Positions 5,863 through 47,309 of a DNA stretch of 64,000 bases are shown here, in pieces (the first letter of the stretch is position 1; the number at the start of each line of letters is the position of its first letter). The notes below the pieces were generated by a model. It made no database searches. It was not told the origin of the DNA and worked only from the letters and a program-made list of their open reading frames with translations. Source of the stretch: Escherichia coli (GTDB lineage Bacteria > Pseudomonadota > Gammaproteobacteria > Enterobacterales > Enterobacteriaceae); NCBI RefSeq assembly GCF_003018235.1, contig NZ_CP027437.1. One strand, given 5' to 3'. Made by a program: the position numbers and the translations under genes.

Positions 5863-6930
5863 ATGACGCATGTTGTAAAAATATCAGAAAGTGAACTGGT
5901 CAATGCTGACTGCCTGGAATTTATACACACGTTGCCAGATGACAGTATTGACCTGATCGTTACCGATCCACCGTACTTTAAAGTGAAACCCAATGGCTGG
6001 GATAACCAGTGGAAGGGTGATGAAGATTACCTGAAGTGGCTGGATCAGTGTCTTGCGCAGTTCTGGCGGGTGCTGAAACCTGCCGGAAGTCTTTACCTGT
6101 TCTGTGGCCATCGCCTGGCATCTGACATCGAAATCATGATGCGTGAACGCTTTAATGTGCTGAACCATATTATCTGGGCGAAGCCGTCCGGACGCTGGAA
6201 CGGATGCAACAAGGAAAGCCTGAGGGCGTATTTCCCGGCCACAGAGCGCATTCTGTTCGCGGAACACTATCTGGAGCCGTATCGCCCGAAAGATGATGGT
6301 TATGAGGCGAAGGGCAGGGCACTGAAACAGCATGTGATGGCACCGCTGATTTCTTACTTTCGTGATGCGCGTGCCGCCCTTGGGATAACGGCAAAACAGA
6401 TTGCTGATGTCACAGGAAAGAAAAACATGGTGTCGCACTGGTTCAGTGCCAGTCAGTGGCAGCTGCCGAACGAAAGCGATTATCTGAAATTACAGGCGCT
6501 GTTTGCCCGGGTGGCAGAAGAGAAGCATCAGCGCGGAGAACTGGAAAAGCCACACCACCAGCTGGTGGTAACGTATACCTCACTGAACCGGCAGTATGCG
6601 GAGTTGCTGAGTGAATACAAAAATCTGCGCCGGTATTTTGGCGTGACGGCGCGGGTCCCGTACACCGATGTGTGGACGCACAAGCCGGTCCAGTTTTACC
6701 CGGGTAAACACCCCTGTGAAAAACCGGCGGAGATGCTGCGGCAGATAATTTGTGCGAGCAGCCGTCCTGGTGACATGGTGGCGGATTTCTTTATGGGGTC
6801 GGGCTCAACCATAAAAGCCGCTATGGCGCTGGGGCGTCGTGCAATTGGTGTTGAACTGGAAGAGGAACGTTTTGCGCAGACCGTGAAAGAGATTAGTCAT
6901 ATCCTGACAGGCTCAATTGATGACGGATAA
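5863..6930 (+). CDS. orphan DNA amino-methyltransferase (N6-adenine/N4-cytosine, beta-class motif order)
   Basis: TDPPYF (motif IV) near N-terminus and FFMGSGST (motif I) near C-terminus; no adjacent restriction endonuclease. Confidence 0.8.
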   Translation: MTHVVKISESELVNADCLEFIHTLPDDSIDLIVTDPPYFKVKPNGWDNQWKGDEDYLKWLDQCLAQFWRVLKPAGSLYLFCGHRLASDIEIMMRERFNVLNHIIWAKPSGRWNGCNKESLRAYFPATERILFAEHYLEPYRPKDDGYEAKGRALKQHVMAPLISYFRDARAALGITAKQIADVTGKKNMVSHWFSASQWQLPNESDYLKLQALFARVAEEKHQRGELEKPHHQLVVTYTSLNRQYAELLSEYKNLRRYFGVTARVPYTDVWTHKPVQFYPGKHPCEKPAEMLRQIICASSRPGDMVADFFMGSGSTIKAAMALGRRAIGVELEEERFAQTVKEISHILTGSIDDG

Positions 6931-7380
6931 GGATGGATAAAGACATGGTCAGTTCAGGATGCGAAGCAAGTAAACAGATAAGGCTATAAAAAAAACTGAC
7001 AGTAGAAAAATAGCTTTTTCCCAGGTATTCATGAACACAATCTCTTAAAAGCGCCCGCTGATACCAGCGGGCAATACATACTGGCATTGATGTTAAGTTT
7101 ACAGGTTTCATTTATCGTATCGTGCGACACGACGTTGTTATGTTAATAAGTGTGATTTTTGATGTGAAATGTTTGTTGCGTGTTTTTTGATGGGTTTCTC
7201 ATTTTTCAGGCATCATCTCGTCACTGATGTGCAGCACAGCGATGAGGTGCTACTACTTCCACGGAGCGGATTTTGTCTTTTTTGTGGGTGGTAAAAATCT
7301 CCTTATAGCAGGATGTGATAATTATTTATCAGTATAATCTTATGAGATTGACGCGATTTCTCCGGATTTGTTAGAAGATC

Positions 7381-7420
7381 ATGCATGGTGAATCCACCTC
7401 AGCGGTGGGTCATAATGACC
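7381..7420 (+). repeat. about 40-bp conserved motif, copy 1 (GCATGGTGAATCC-hairpin-CATAATGAC)
   Basis: 33 of 40 identical to copy 2 at 7940-7979. Confidence 0.5.
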
Positions 7421-7456
7421 GCCTGTTCGCCGGTTCAATCCCTGCGGGGGCCACCA
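7404..7456 (+). pseudogene. degenerate tRNA: ileX/ileZ-like 3-prime half (CAT anticodon, T-arm, GGGGGCC-A-CCA) lacking a pairing 5-prime acceptor strand
   Basis: 3-prime half aligns closely to E. coli ileX recalled from memory; no 5-prime sequence can pair with the acceptor 3-prime strand. Confidence 0.4.
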
Positions 7457-7457
7457 T

Positions 7458-7534
7458 GCGCCGTTAGCTCAGCTGGACAGAGCAATTGCCTTCTAAGCAA
7501 TCGGTCACTGGTTCGAATCCAGTATGGCGCACCA
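7458..7534 (+). tRNA. tRNA-Arg (anticodon TCT, reads AGA)
   Basis: Cloverleaf folded by hand: 7-bp acceptor stem, perfect 5-bp anticodon stem ATTGC/GCAAT, loop CTTCTAA, T-loop TTCGAAT, encoded CCA. Confidence 0.85.
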
Positions 7535-7535
7535 T

Positions 7536-7610
7536 GCGGTCATCGTATAATGGCTATTACCTCGGCCTTCCAGGCTGATGATGCGGGTTCGATTCCAGCT
7601 GGCCGCTCCA
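7536..7610 (+). tRNA. tRNA-Gly (anticodon TCC), glyT-like with one T-stem mismatch
   Basis: 75 nt, near-identical to E. coli glyT recalled from memory; anticodon loop CTTCCAG; acceptor stem with one G-U; T-stem GCGGG/CCAGC has a G-A mismatch. Confidence 0.7.
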
Positions 7611-7630
7611 TAGAGGATTATGGGGACTGT

Positions 7631-7768
7631 ATGTTGAGTATTTTTCTGCGTTACCTTTCATCGGTAAAAATAAACACACAACAACTATTTATGCTGGCAT
7701 TAGCAATGATAGTTATTGGTTTTCTCGGAACTTGTTTATTTATTTACTATATTTTTGTCGATAATTAA
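7631..7768 (+). CDS. small hydrophobic peptide ORF (45 aa, MLSIFLRYLSSVKINTQQLFMLALAMIVIGFLGTCLFIYYIFVDN)
   Basis: ATG ORF in AT-rich spacer after tRNAs; one predicted TM helix; weak RBS. Confidence 0.25.
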   Translation: MLSIFLRYLSSVKINTQQLFMLALAMIVIGFLGTCLFIYYIFVDN

Positions 7769-7939
7769 TATTTTTAGTATTTAGCCAGAGTGGCCCAAAC
7801 AGAAAATAAAGTTACTGTGAAACAGGGGGGCCTAATAAAAATAATCACCACTAAATTCGGGGCTTTAAAAATGCTAAGAACATCACATTTCATTATGCCG
7901 GGTACTGGAGAATAACATGATGTTTTGTTAAAAATGATT

Positions 7940-7979
7940 TTGCATGGTGAATCCCCCTGTGCGGCGGGGCATAATGACA
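7940..7979 (+). repeat. about 40-bp conserved motif, copy 2
   Basis: See copy 1; a partial inverted copy (GGTCATTGCAG...CACCATGCAG) lies at about 8021-8064. Confidence 0.5.
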
Positions 7980-8321
7980 GATGTTTGGTTGCGTATTGTA
8001 TAGGCAAGTTGCGGATTCTGTCTGGTCATTGCAGAATTCACCGGGAGGCACCCGGCACCATGCAGATAATTGTTTTGTGGATGATAATACCAGCCCCTCT
8101 CCGGAGGGGCTTTCTTATGGGCGAAAAAAAGCCCGGGGAGCCGGGCAATAGCATGAGATATACGTTTTTATAGACGTACAGATTTTAATCAGAATTTATG
8201 GGGCTGCGCAACTGCGTGGCCTTTTTTGTTTTGTGGGCTAAGGTTTTCCCCTTTGATTCGCCATGTGGCTGAACCTGTAGCCCGCCACTGTTCAGACGCA
8301 ATCCCGGCAAGGGGAGGAATA

Positions 8322-10349
8322 ATGGCATTTAAACACTACGATCTGGTCTCTGCCAGCAGCGGTGATGAACTGCAAAAGAAACTGACAGAAAAAATAAATG
8401 AAGGGTGGCAGCCATACGGTTCGCCGCTTGTTTCGTATGACGATAACGGGATGAAAATTATTCAGGCCATTGCAGCAGAGGGTGATGTCAGGATCCCGGT
8501 TGAAACGCCTGATGATGGTGGTGATTCACCGGTCACAATGACCTCCGGTGCACCTGATTATTATTATGTTGTTGTGCTTGCCGGACAGTCCAACGGCATG
8601 GCCTACGGTGAGGGGCTTCCGTTACCGGACTCTTATGACCGCCCGGACCCGCGCATTAAACAGCTGGCACGCCGCAGTACAGTGACGCCGGGTGGGGACG
8701 CCTGTGCATACAATGATGTGATTCCGGCTGACCATTGTCTGCATGATGTACAGGATATGAGCGGTGTTAATCATCCGAAAGCGGACCTGAATAAGGGGCA
8801 GTATGGCTGTGTCAGTCAGGGGCTGCATATTGCCAAAAAACTGCTGTCGTATATCCCGCAGAATGCAGGGATACTTCTGGTGCCCTGCTGCCGTGGTGGT
8901 TCTGCATTCACCACCGGGGCTGACGGCACATTCAGTGAGGTCACCGGCGCATCCGCTGACGCTGCACGCTGGGGTGCCGGTAAACCCCTGTATCAGGACA
9001 TGGTCAGCCGGACAAAAGCGGCGCTGGCCAAGAACCCGAAAAACAGGCTGCTGGCGGTGGTATGGATGCAGGGCGAGGCAGACCTTGCGTCAGGCAGTCA
9101 GCAGCATAACGGGTTATTCACGGCCATGGTTCAGCAGTTCCGGACTGACCTGTCCTCACTTGCTGCGCAGTGCGTGAGTGGCAATGCTGCCACGGTGCCG
9201 TGGATTTGTGGTGATACCACGTATTACTGGAAGGCCACTTATGGCACACAGTATGAAGCCATTTATGGAGCCTATAAGAATCTGTCCGCACAGAATATTT
9301 TCTTTGTACCGTTCCTGACAGATGAAAACGGCGCAAACACGCCAACGAACCAGCCAGCGGAAGACCCGGATATTGTGGCTGTGGGGTATTACGGTGCGGC
9401 ATCACGAACACAGGCGAACTGGACGACAGCGCAACGTGACAGCCATTTCAGCACCTGGGCGCGTCGCGGCATCATTTCTGACCGCCTTGCGTCAGCTATT
9501 CTGGTGCACGCGGGACGTACGTCAGGTTTCATTACCGGTGAAGTTTCTTCTCCGGACACTGCATCCGGTGACGGTGGTTCGTCCACTGATGCGGGTACGG
9601 ATGCGGGGACCGGCACTTCCGGAACAGGAAGTGATGACGCTACCGGAACGACACCAGCCACCGCTGCCATTATTCTGAGTGCAGACGGAGGGGATGTTTC
9701 GGCACAGGGCTGGACGGTGGAAGGCACCACGGTGACCACCACGGCAAACACGGTGACTTCATCGGGTGAGGCGCTGGCGCAGAATGTGCTGAGTGTTCCG
9801 AAACAGAGCGGGGCAGCATGGAAGCTTGTTCATACCACCACAGATGAGCCAGCGGAACTGCTGAACAATGGCGGTGAGTTCCTGTGTCGTTTCCGTATCA
9901 CGGATACTGCCATTGCTGAGGGGCGTTATGCCTTTGGTCTTTACTGGCTTCCGGACGCACAGAAGATACCAGCCGGTGCGACATTCAATAAAACAGGAAG
10001 CGGGATGTCCCCGTCCATGCTCAACTTCTATGTCCAGACGGATGGCAGCAACATAAACCTGTTATCACACTGCAGTACGAAGAGTGCAGGGAATCTGAAG
10101 ATTGGCTCATTCGGTGCATTTAACAATGAATGGCATACCTTCCGTCTTCGCTACCATGGTGGCAATACGGCAAGAGCAACGGTGACGCTGGACAGTCAGG
10201 TGGTGGGAGATATAACGCTGTTATGTGCGCCGTCAGCGGCCAGTGCCGGTGACACTCTGTCGATGATAAGTATCACATCGGGTGATACATACAGTATTGA
10301 AGTGGAAAGCCTGAGTGTGACGGTGAACGGGGCTGCGGCAGCGGCGTGA
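8322..10349 (+). CDS. prophage sialate O-acetylesterase-like protein (NanS-p-like) with long C-terminal Thr/Gly-rich domain
   Basis: GGGGAGGAATA RBS then ATG; SASA-type catalytic motif VLAGQSNGMAYGEG; N-terminal region resembling DUF1737; position equivalent to the esterase gene downstream of stx in Stx phages. Confidence 0.6.
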   Translation: MAFKHYDLVSASSGDELQKKLTEKINEGWQPYGSPLVSYDDNGMKIIQAIAAEGDVRIPVETPDDGGDSPVTMTSGAPDYYYVVVLAGQSNGMAYGEGLPLPDSYDRPDPRIKQLARRSTVTPGGDACAYNDVIPADHCLHDVQDMSGVNHPKADLNKGQYGCVSQGLHIAKKLLSYIPQNAGILLVPCCRGGSAFTTGADGTFSEVTGASADAARWGAGKPLYQDMVSRTKAALAKNPKNRLLAVVWMQGEADLASGSQQHNGLFTAMVQQFRTDLSSLAAQCVSGNAATVPWICGDTTYYWKATYGTQYEAIYGAYKNLSAQNIFFVPFLTDENGANTPTNQPAEDPDIVAVGYYGAASRTQANWTTAQRDSHFSTWARRGIISDRLASAILVHAGRTSGFITGEVSSPDTASGDGGSSTDAGTDAGTGTSGTGSDDATGTTPATAAIILSADGGDVSAQGWTVEGTTVTTTANTVTSSGEALAQNVLSVPKQSGAAWKLVHTTTDEPAELLNNGGEFLCRFRITDTAIAEGRYAFGLYWLPDAQKIPAGATFNKTGSGMSPSMLNFYVQTDGSNINLLSHCSTKSAGNLKIGSFGAFNNEWHTFRLRYHGGNTARATVTLDSQVVGDITLLCAPSAASAGDTLSMISITSGDTYSIEVESLSVTVNGAAAAA

Positions 10350-39153: not shown

Positions 39154-39214
39154 CCTAAAGAATCAAGACGATCCGGTACGCGTGATTTTCTTTTCACATT
39201 AATCTGGTCAATAA

Positions 39215-39243
39215 CCTTGAATAATTGAGGGATGACCTCATTT
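39215..39243 (+). promoter_or_regulatory. sigma32 heat-shock promoter of clpB (CCTTGAA, 14-nt spacer, CCTCATTT)
   Basis: Match to sigma32 consensus CTTGAAA / CCCCATNT. Confidence 0.6.
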
Positions 39244-39282
39244 AATCTCCAGTAGCAACTTTGATCCGTTATGGGAGGAGTT

Positions 39283-41856
39283 ATGCGTCTGGATCGTCTT
39301 ACTAATAAATTCCAGCTTGCTCTTGCCGATGCCCAATCACTTGCACTCGGGCACGACAACCAATTCATCGAACCACTTCATTTAATGAGCGCCCTGCTGA
39401 ATCAGGAAGGGGGTTCGGTTAGTCCTTTATTAACATCCGCTGGCATAAATGCTGGCCAGTTGCGCACAGATATCAATCAGGCATTAAATCGTTTACCGCA
39501 GGTTGAAGGTACTGGTGGTGATGTCCAGCCATCACAGGATCTGGTGCGCGTTCTTAATCTTTGCGACAAGCTGGCGCAAAAACGTGGTGATAACTTTATC
39601 TCGTCAGAACTGTTCGTTCTGGCGGCACTTGAGTCTCGCGGCACGCTGGCCGACATCCTGAAAGCAGCAGGGGCGACCACCGCCAACATTACTCAAGCGA
39701 TTGAACAAATGCGTGGAGGTGAAAGCGTGAACGATCAAGGTGCTGAAGACCAACGTCAGGCTTTGAAAAAATATACCATCGACCTTACCGAACGAGCCGA
39801 ACAGGGCAAACTCGATCCGGTGATTGGTCGTGATGAAGAAATTCGCCGTACCATTCAGGTGCTGCAACGTCGTACTAAAAATAACCCAGTACTGATTGGT
39901 GAACCCGGCGTCGGTAAAACTGCCATCGTTGAAGGTCTGGCGCAGCGTATTATCAACGGCGAAGTGCCGGAAGGGTTGAAAGGCCGCCGCGTACTGGCGC
40001 TGGATATGGGCGCGCTGGTGGCTGGGGCGAAATATCGCGGTGAGTTTGAAGAACGTTTAAAAGGCGTGCTTAACGATCTTGCCAAACAGGAAGGCAACGT
40101 CATCCTGTTTATCGACGAATTACATACCATGGTCGGCGCGGGTAAAGCCGATGGCGCAATGGACGCCGGAAACATGCTGAAACCGGCGCTGGCGCGTGGT
40201 GAATTGCACTGCGTAGGTGCCACGACGCTTGACGAATATCGCCAGTACATCGAAAAAGATGCTGCGCTGGAACGTCGTTTCCAGAAAGTGTTTGTTGCCG
40301 AGCCTTCTGTTGAAGATACCATTGCGATTCTGCGTGGCCTGAAAGAACGTTACGAATTGCACCACCATGTGCAAATTACTGACCCGGCAATTGTTGCAGC
40401 GGCGACGTTGTCTCATCGCTACATTGCTGACCGTCAGCTGCCGGATAAAGCCATCGACCTGATCGATGAAGCAGCATCCAGCATTCGTATGCAGATCGAC
40501 TCAAAACCAGAAGAACTCGACCGACTCGATCGTCGTATCATCCAGCTTAAACTGGAACAACAGGCGTTAATGAAAGAGTCTGATGAAGCCAGTAAAAAAC
40601 GCCTGGATATGCTCAACGAAGAACTGAGCGACAAAGAACGTCAGTACTCCGAGTTAGAAGAAGAGTGGAAAGCAGAGAAAGCATCGCTTTCTGGTACACA
40701 GACCATTAAAGCGGAACTGGAACAGGCGAAAATCGCTATTGAACAGGCTCGCCGTGTGGGTGACCTGGCGCGGATGTCTGAACTGCAATACGGCAAAATC
40801 CCGGAACTGGAAAAGCAACTGGAAGCCGCAACGCAGCTCGAAGGCAAAACTATGCGTCTGTTGCGTAATAAAGTGACCGATGCCGAAATTGCTGAAGTGC
40901 TGGCGCGTTGGACGGGGATTCCGGTTTCTCGCATGATGGAAAGCGAGCGCGAAAAACTGCTGCGTATGGAGCAAGAGCTGCACCATCGCGTTATTGGTCA
41001 GAACGAAGCGGTTGATGCGGTATCTAACGCTATTCGTCGTAGCCGTGCGGGGCTGGCGGATCCAAATCGCCCGATTGGTTCATTCCTGTTCCTCGGCCCA
41101 ACGGGTGTGGGGAAAACTGAGCTTTGTAAGGCGCTGGCGAACTTTATGTTTGATAGCGACGAGGCGATGGTCCGTATCGATATGTCCGAGTTTATGGAGA
41201 AACACTCGGTGTCTCGTCTGGTTGGTGCGCCTCCGGGATATGTCGGTTATGAAGAAGGTGGCTACCTGACCGAAGCGGTGCGTCGTCGTCCGTATTCCGT
41301 CATCCTGCTGGATGAAGTGGAAAAAGCGCATCCGGATGTCTTCAACATTCTGTTGCAGGTACTGGATGATGGGCGTCTGACTGACGGGCAGGGGAGAACG
41401 GTCGACTTCCGTAATACGGTTGTCATTATGACCTCTAACCTCGGTTCCGATTTGATTCAGGAACGCTTCGGTGAACTGGATTATGCGCACATGAAAGAGC
41501 TGGTGCTCGGTGTGGTAAGCCATAACTTCCGTCCGGAATTCATTAACCGTATCGATGAAGTGGTGGTCTTCCATCCGCTGGGTGAACAGCACATTGCGTC
41601 GATTGCGCAGATTCAGTTGAAACGTCTGTACAAACGTCTGGAAGAACGTGGTTATGAAATCCACATTTCTGACGAGGCGCTGAAACTGCTGAGCGAGAAC
41701 GGTTACGATCCGGTCTATGGTGCACGTCCTCTGAAACGTGCTATCCAGCAGCAGATCGAAAACCCGCTGGCACAGCAAATACTGTCTGGTGAATTGGTTC
41801 CGGGTAAAGTTATTCGCCTGGAAGTTAATGAAGACCGGATTGTCGCCGTCCAGTAA
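39283..41856 (+). CDS. clpB: chaperone ClpB; internal GTG at 39727 for the short isoform
   Basis: 857 aa with two AAA+ modules ([16 protein letters not shown]); internal GTG with GGAGGTGA RBS. Confidence 0.97.
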
Positions 41857-42297: not shown

Positions 42298-43839
<1,542 letters not shown>

Positions 43840-43924
43840 CCTTAAAGAACTGTGCTTTGCAGTGCTCACACAGATTGTCTGATGAAAAGTGAAAAGCAAG
43901 GCGTCTTGCGAAGCAGACTGATAC

Positions 43925-44000
43925 GTCCCCTTCGTCTAGAGGCCCAGGACACCGCCCTTTCACGGCGGTAACAGGGGTTCGAATCCCCTAGGGGACGCCA
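43925..44000 (+). tRNA. gltW: tRNA-Glu (anticodon TTC) in 16S-23S spacer
   Basis: Exact E. coli tRNA-Glu sequence GTCCCCTTCGTCTAGAGGCCCAGGACACCGCCCTTTCACGGCGGTAACAGGGGTTCGAATCCCCTAGGGGACGCCA. Confidence 0.98.
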
Positions 44001-44203
44001 CTTGCTGGTTTGTGAGTGAAAGTCACCTGCCTTAATATCTCAAAACTCATCTTCGGGTGACGTTTGAGATATTTGCTCTTTAAAAATCTGGATCAAGCTG
44101 AAAATTGAAACACTGAACAACGAAAGTTGTTCGTGAGTCTCTCAAATTTTCGCAACACGATGATGAATCGAAAGAAACATCTTCGGGTTGTGAGGTTAAG
44201 CGA

Positions 44204-47097
<2,894 letters not shown>

Positions 47098-47189
47098 ACA
47101 ACGCCGAAGCTGTTTTGGCGGATGAGAGAAGATTTTCAGCCTGATACAGATTAAATCAGAACGCAGAAGCGGTCTGATGAAACAGAATT

Positions 47190-47309
47190 TGCCTGGCGGC
47201 CTTAGCGCGGTGGTCCCACCTGACCCCATGCCGAACTCAGAAGTGAAACGCCGTAGCGCCGATGGTAGTGTGGGGTCTCCCCATGCGAGAGTAGGGAACT
47301 GCCAGGCAT
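47190..47309 (+). rRNA. rrfG: 5S ribosomal RNA
   Basis: 120 nt TGCCTGGCGGC...GCCAGGCAT. Confidence 0.97.

Follow-up and report, generated by a model that had tools for sequence, protein, structure and literature searches.

STnc100 and PasD are prophage small RNAs (sRNAs) that adjoin an esterase gene (bioRxiv 10.64898/2026.05.13.724894; PMC12370729). In the record of the Stx2 phage 933W, a methylase remnant and the promoter pT are followed by the tRNA genes ileZ-argN-argO, stx2AB, an STnc100-like element, the esterase gene and the lysis genes, and in O157:H7 both kinds of gene, tRNA-array and STnc100, occur within one module at a distance of about 300 nt. An intact form of the array was found in E. 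coli SHP24 (L016; L numbers label the loci that were compared), where the methylase, a homologue of 7031-7210 of the DNA studied here and pT precede tRNA-Ile(CAT), tRNA-Thr(TGT), tRNA-Arg(TCT) and tRNA-Gly(TCC). The SHP24 tRNAs were each set apart by one T, and the 8-mer CACCATGC was already present at every junction of this parent array.

The window, by which we mean the whole 64,000-nt stretch of E. coli DNA that was analysed, contains the late region of a lambdoid prophage. The antiterminator gene Q is followed there by a methyltransferase gene, the hybrid element that is the subject of this report, tRNA-Arg, tRNA-Gly, a small ORF, STnc100, a nanS-p-type SASA esterase gene and the holin and lysozyme genes (Table 1), and this is the same module as in 933W. 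Region 7150-8350 was 99.9% identical to that of E. coli O158:H23 strain CFIAFB20140388. The 5' segment of the hybrid has a resident relative in the complete STnc100 gene, which lies ahead of the nanS-p-type esterase gene. The hybrid lies in the same slot as ileZ of 933W and other phage tRNA-Ile2 (CAT) genes: it is the first member of an array flanked by the methylase (or its remnant) on one side and by the esterase and lysis genes on the other. However, positions 1-38 of ileZ and of the host ileX/ileY (acceptor 5' strand, D-arm and 5' strand of the anticodon stem) are absent from it. The hybrid is a chimera of a 5' piece of an sRNA gene and a 3' piece of tRNA-Ile2 from which no cloverleaf can be formed. 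As a tRNA pseudogene, truncated and located at a phage mosaic junction, it is undescribed so far and of an ordinary kind; the apparent "odd tRNA" is a lambdoid mosaic junction, and annotation as a tRNA is unwarranted. Most probably the hybrid is a non-functional pseudogene that was produced by a single illegitimate recombination between an STnc100-type sRNA gene and a phage ileZ-type tRNA-Ile2 gene, and that today is an inert leader.

Table 1. Coordinates of the hybrid, its parts and the neighbouring genes in the window.
Feature	Position	Strand	Evidence or location
DNA methyltransferase gene	5863-6930		5' of the hybrid
5' segment of the hybrid, copy of the STnc100-family 5' region	7367..7418	+	Local alignments, repeat search, partial Rfam match
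5' strand of the STnc100 closing helix, GCATGGTG, kept in the hybrid	7383..7390	+	Rfam structure, minimum free energy (MFE) folds, alignment
CATAA, common to both parents (junction zone)	7411..7415	+	Overlap of the two alignment sets
3' segment of the hybrid, equivalent to tRNA-Ile2 (ileZ type) positions 39-76	7419..7456	+	Ungapped identity, z-scores, phage-database matches
CACCATGC, able to pair with 7383-7390	7452..7459	+	Used as closing strand in the STnc100 model alignment
tRNA-Arg (anticodon TCT), intact, adjoining the hybrid 3' end	7458..7534	+	ARAGORN; Rfam tRNA, 69.3 bits; RefSeq in a near-identical genome
tRNA-Gly (anticodon TCC), intact	7536..7610	+	ARAGORN; Rfam tRNA, 46.6 bits
Complete STnc100-family sRNA gene with terminator	7912..8122	+	Rfam RF02076, 145.6 bits, full-length model 1-206

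Parentage of the two segments

The 3' segment contains the 3' strand of the anticodon stem, the variable loop, the T-arm, the acceptor 3' strand, the discriminator A and CCA. The CCGCC at 7419-7423 matched that anticodon-stem strand; the T-arm is made up of GCCGG (7429-7433), TTCAATC (7434-7440) and CCTGC (7441-7445), and the acceptor strand GGGGGCC (7446-7452) is followed by A7453 and the CCA at 7454-7456. When 7412-7456 was aligned locally with ileZ of 933W, the CAT tRNA of phi296, the tRNA-Ile pseudogene of an ST866 strain (L006) and what we take to be the ileX sequence, z was 10.5-12.2, and 0 of 300 shuffles scored as well as the Ile2-type match. The tRNAs for Arg, Gly, Glu and Thr gave z of only -0.2 to 2.7, and since values of at least 10 were reached with Ile2 tRNAs alone, the resemblance to tRNA-Ile2 is specific. 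A sequence-only reading had compared the 3' part with tRNA-Ile2 and had called for alignment with phage ileZ and host ileX, and these values bear the comparison out. The same 38 nt were 33/38 identical, without gaps, to the intact syntenic tRNA-Ile of SHP24 in the window and 34/38 identical in the hybrid of O170:H18 (L002), a range of 87-89%. In the phage-database search, the only matches to the 3' half of the hybrid were CAT-anticodon tRNAs of Salmonella phages. By these similarities, the ancestor of the 3' part is the ileZ-type tRNA-Ile2 gene that stands first in this phage tRNA array in relatives (L016, 933W). The segment is a tRNA remnant in that isotype-specific similarity in a syntenic position goes together with loss of essential elements.

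A functional tRNA was not detected by any tool. ARAGORN did not call the hybrid, and the Rfam tRNA model (RF00005) gave no match at the gathering score or at E<=10, also when the 3' half was submitted alone, so that the covariance-model check proposed in the sequence-only reading found no complete fold. No 7-mer in 7200-7425 had more than 5 Watson-Crick pairs with the acceptor 3' strand, and the 250 nt upstream offered no substitute for the expected partner. Of the 7 pairs expected with that partner, 7381-7387 (ATGCATG), 2 were formed, a Watson-Crick pair and a G-U pair, in agreement with the earlier statement that an upstream acceptor partner is lacking. The D-arm, the 5' strand of the anticodon stem and a 7-nt anticodon loop were absent from the hybrid, the sequence 5' of CAT being the STnc100 hairpin, and in the predicted folds CAU was placed within a 3-nt loop (lineage A, defined below) or a loop of about 10 nt (lineage B). 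The T-arm letters given in the sequence-only reading are present at 7429-7445. However, in this window one pair of the stem (GCCGG/CCTGC) is a C·U mismatch, whereas in lineage B the stem is intact (GCTGG/CCGGC). Because the acceptor 5' strand is missing, as are the D-arm and the 7-nt anticodon loop, the hybrid can form no cloverleaf and can neither be charged nor decode AUA; the prophage lineage is without an AUA-decoding tRNA of its own and has kept tRNA-Arg(UCU) and tRNA-Gly(UCC). In RefSeq/PGAP the hybrid was unannotated in every genome that carries it, and only Arg and Gly were annotated at the locus. ARAGORN also called two borderline members of the array, a tRNA-Thr in L016 (1845-1920) and a tRNA-Gly in L008 (1888-1962), neither of which was annotated by PGAP.

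The 5' segment begins with TTTGTTAG, continues with GCATGGTG and the first hairpin, and ends at CATAATGA. Local alignments placed 7366/7367-7419/7421 on STnc100 genes, including the window copy (7924-7978) and those of mouse strain M8 (L003) and O157:H7 TW14359 (L013). A repeat search paired 7377-7419 with 7936-7978 (84% over 43 nt), and the partner at 7936 proved to be the start of the STnc100 gene (Rfam RF02076), which identifies the motif that had been noticed to recur near 7940. Compared with STnc100, the hybrid has the first 52 nt or so (TTTGTTA, GCAUGGUG and the first hairpin), and the closing helix can form; it lacks the core hairpins and the terminator and is followed directly by tRNA genes. 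The Rfam STnc100 model matched the hybrid partially, with 20.1 bits in the window and 37.3 bits (E 3.4e-7) in O170:H18. Both scores are below the gathering score of 47 bits; only model positions 1-124 (window) and 1-159 (L002) were covered, with large deletions. The closing strand GCAUGGUG, the first hairpin and the closing helix with CACCAUGC were all present in the hybrid. Genuine STnc100 genes (window 7908-7937; L004, L005, L006, L008, L013, L014) had TTTGTTAAAAA in common about 17 nt before GCATGGTG, and farther upstream they split into at least 3 unrelated classes. The sRNA copy in the hybrid begins at TTTGTTA and lacks the conserved stretch that precedes genuine STnc100 genes.

Duplication of the resident STnc100 gene was rejected as the origin of the 5' segment. 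The best alignment score was obtained with L003 (72), followed by L013 (61) and the window copy (59), and this closer similarity to an L003-type variant than to the resident copy makes exchange between phages more likely. Three further proposals about STnc100 were discarded. An impression by eye, from L003, that CATAAT-type STnc100 variants carry ileZ-derived sequence past CATAAT was not upheld, with z<=2.3 against ileZ, which is no higher than for other STnc100 variants. STnc100 itself is not tRNA-like or tRNA-derived, as had been considered for its closing strand CACCAUGC, the Rfam tRNA model being silent on 7935-8070 at E<=10. Nor is STnc100 or the repeated motif a Q-dependent pR' leader, for in 933W pR'/qut lies directly after Q and the STnc100-like element after stx2B.

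The two sets of alignments overlapped at the junction. Alignments to ileZ-type genes spanned 7410-7457, those to STnc100-type genes ended at 7419-7421, and the overlap was TCATAATGAC. CATAA is at the same time the anticodon loop of the parent tRNA-Ile2 (CTCATAACCGCC) and part of the STnc100 sequence CATAATGAC, which is also found in the intact copy at 7970-7978; STnc100 variants read GGGGCATAATGAC(A/C)G, and the 5' half of the hybrid aligned to STnc100 genes from TTTGTTA to CATAATGAC(CG). The "intact CAT anticodon" of the sequence-only reading is correct as to the letters, which stand at 7411-7413. However, because CAT lies in the segment common to both parents, it is not assignable to the tRNA and gives no evidence of a preserved anticodon.

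Distribution and proposed history

The 28-nt junction sequence of the hybrid is CATAATGACCGCCNGNTCGCNGGTTCAA. Among 5,426 complete E. coli genomes the junction was present in 9, which fall into two lineages. Exact-pattern scans of viral contigs, of metagenome contigs and of a collection with a single genome for each prokaryotic species returned no copy of it, and the phage-database search likewise did not find the hybrid. Lineage A consisted of the window, L001, L008, L009, L011 and L012 (including A8, pig and human strains) and had the order hybrid-Arg-Gly; lineage B consisted of L002 and L010 (O170:H18 and STEC299) and had the order hybrid-Thr-Arg-Gly. The same junction was found in both lineages, indicating a single origin. 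Lineage A differed from lineage B by a 77-nt deletion that ends within the repeated CACCATGC junction and by which tRNA-Thr was lost.

The difference from the intact parent locus is confined to about 208 nt (7211-7418). The donor of this stretch was not found, 7211-7365 being limited to the same 9 genomes, and the number of recombination steps is therefore uncertain. The parents would have been an STnc100-family gene of a lambdoid phage (the CATAATGAC variant) and an ileZ-type tRNA-Ile2 (CAT) gene standing first in its tRNA array. In the simplest history, one illegitimate crossover would have joined a phage carrying [7211-7365]-STnc100 to a phage carrying the Ile-Thr-Arg-Gly array. The crossover would have occurred inside the shared CATAA, possibly including CCG, and would have exchanged tRNA positions 1-38 for about 52 nt of the sRNA 5' region; a homologous exchange farther downstream would have completed the event. 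Later, the lineage that includes the window would have dropped tRNA-Thr by deletion between CACCATGC repeats. The suggestion in the sequence-only reading of a recombination scar rather than a functional tRNA has held: both segments were traced to a type of parent gene, one junction is common to two diverged lineages, and no tool gave a cloverleaf.

Judged from the gene order, the hybrid probably does no more than precede tRNA-Arg and tRNA-Gly in their common precursor, as an inert 5' leader that RNase P removes. It would be transcribed solely as this leader, either by read-through of the late operon or from a weak local promoter, perhaps the TATAAT at 7333-7338, which was not called in a consensus promoter scan; the -10 element of the parental pT has been lost. 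The cut by RNase P would fall at 7457/7458 and would free the leader for degradation. The STnc100 promoter and its true 5' end could not be placed from sequence.

The same Arg-Gly array is headed in the ST866 strain (L006) by an unannotated, full-length, decayed tRNA-Ile2 pseudogene (1468-1540), an example of tRNA gene decay in a cryptic lambdoid prophage. It has the anticodon loop TTAATAA, its 3' end reads GCACGA (CCACCA in the intact form), and it scored 28.3 bits, the Rfam tRNA gathering score being 29 bits. In both cases the same gene of the same array has lost its function, and neither is annotated. However, the decay in L006 is by point mutations, whereas the hybrid arose by truncation and fusion to foreign sequence. 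The phage tRNA array appears to be eroding one gene at a time across prophages. The tRNA array and the STnc100/PasD slot recombine via very short shared sequences (CATAA, CACCATGC), and the hybrid adds a data point on the reshuffling of a virulence-associated module, which is the site of the stx genes in Stx phages. Its wider importance is limited unless the hybrid RNA turns out to be expressed and stable.

Folding, divergence and competing readings

The Rfam STnc100 consensus pairs GcaUGGUG with CACCAugC, the GCAUGGUG/CACCAUGC closing helix. In the hybrid, the downstream strand CACCATGC is composed of the tRNA 3' end (C72, A73, CCA), the 1-nt spacer T and GC, the first two bases of tRNA-Arg, and the 8-mer was present at 7452, 7530 and 8056. 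The closing strand is thus re-created by the tRNA junction, and the hybrid can be folded as a miniature STnc100. The helix was formed in every MFE fold and was 8/8 paired in five aligned hybrid sequences, but it is invariant. In the structure made up of closing helix, 5' hairpin and T-arm, 93% of cells were paired. Covariation was zero, with no pair changed on both sides among the aligned hybrid copies; the T-stem had one variable pair, which lineage B has as U·G and which in lineage A is an unpaired C·U. The MFE z-scores of the hybrid were -1.3 to -2.0, compared with -4.0 for real ileZ. A window-specific change, C7396A, gave a fully paired 5' hairpin (CCACC/GGTGG).

Between the window and L002, divergence was 14.8% in the 5' part of the hybrid and 7.9% in its 3' part, compared with about 6.5% in the spacers, 3.9% in tRNA-Arg and 4.0% in tRNA-Gly, showing that the hybrid evolves no slower than the flanking spacers. 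The high value in the 5' part may be due to gene conversion with resident STnc100 copies rather than to neutral drift. The 8-bp helix, the 5' hairpin and the T-arm-like hairpin were retained despite this marked local divergence and the later deletion, and such persistence leaves room for some residual RNA function.

The strongest alternative builds on this structure and takes the hybrid for an expressed sRNA, a "mini-STnc100" that acts like STnc100 or competes with it. The T-arm would stand in place of the variable core, the tRNA 3' end plus UGC would restore the closing helix, and RNase P would set the 3' end. It agrees with the alignment of the L002 hybrid to the Rfam model (37.3 bits, with the closing helix GCAUGGUG/CACCAUGC), with a closing helix that is found in all MFE folds and is 100% paired in all copies, with the hairpin completed by C7396A and with the maintenance of the hybrid in two diverged lineages. 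We nevertheless regard it as unlikely. The scores remain under the gathering score of 47 (20.1 bits in the window), the terminator and core hairpins are absent, covariation is zero and the variable pairs are broken in some copies. Moreover, the fold z-scores fall short of significance, the sequence has diverged no less than the spacers, and CACCATGC is accounted for by the tRNA junction of the parent array. The hybrid is also very rare (9/5,426), and its copy begins at TTTGTTA, without the conserved sequence upstream of genuine STnc100 genes. A bolder form of the idea, in which the hybrid is a newly born regulatory RNA whose STnc100-type start captured a T-arm and CCA end and which RNase P releases as a tRNA-tailed, stable mini-sRNA, seems to us quite improbable; if true, it would be an example of sRNA evolution via fusion with a tRNA gene.

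The anticodon loop is the classic crossover position of integrases. Orphan tRNA 3' fragments at the att sites of prophages and islands run, like the fragment in the hybrid, from the anticodon loop to CCA, and the hybrid could accordingly be read as the att-site remnant of an element once integrated into the anticodon loop of tRNA-Ile2. The position of the break in the anticodon loop and the extension of the fragment to the CCA end fit this reading. However, ARAGORN found no second, intact tRNA-Ile in the 64-kb window, only about 208 nt were replaced, and neither an integrase nor an inserted element is present. The DNA that abuts the fragment is the 5' part of the sRNA gene of the neighbouring module and not the end of an element, so that an att-site origin is very improbable. 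That the hybrid is a functional non-canonical tRNA, a truncated or split AUA decoder, can practically be dismissed, for although the CAT triplet, the T-loop TTCAATC, the discriminator A and the encoded CCA are present, the acceptor 5' strand and D-arm are missing, CAT is predicted in a 3-nt (lineage A) or roughly 10-nt (lineage B) loop, neither ARAGORN nor the Rfam tRNA model, also at E<=10, recognises the hybrid, and the T-stem is mismatched in the window.

Related elements in the window and in other loci

Each inter-tRNA junction of the Ile-Thr-Arg-Gly array has the 8-mer that also serves STnc100 as its 3' closing strand, CACCAUGC. Strands of the 8-mer helix were located in the window at 7383-7390, 7452-7459, 7530-7537, 7942-7949 and 8056-8063. 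The sharing of this 8-mer between STnc100 and the tRNA junctions may be a coincidence, or it may mark a common recombination or processing site. In O157:H7 TW14359 (L013, 1519-1640), STnc100 has GCATGATG...CATCATGC instead of GCATGGTG...CACCATGC. The closing helix of this gene is GCAUGAUG/CAUCAUGC, a double compensatory change that backs the long-range helix of the Rfam model.

A small hydrophobic ORF of 45 aa (MLSIFLRYLSSVKINTQQLFMLALAMIVIGFLGTCLFIYYIFVDN) is located directly 3' of tRNA-Gly at 7632-7768 (+). It was assigned to no family in a PHROG search and is absent from the RefSeq annotation; a counterpart follows the same tRNA array in L002, L006, L008 and L016. In E. coli O121 RM8352 (L015, approximately 1890-2050), a different hairpin-rich element (CCCTCCCTCAGCGGGGGGGC ... 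terminator) replaces the tRNAs and STnc100 and occupies the methylase-iraM slot; it may be a candidate PasD-type relative. Elsewhere in the window, and unrelated to the hybrid, Rfam identified isrK and C4 antisense RNA near the window start (641-715 and 751-838), RyfD at 39164-39302, and a complete rrn operon with tRNA-Glu and StyR-44 at 42298-47307.
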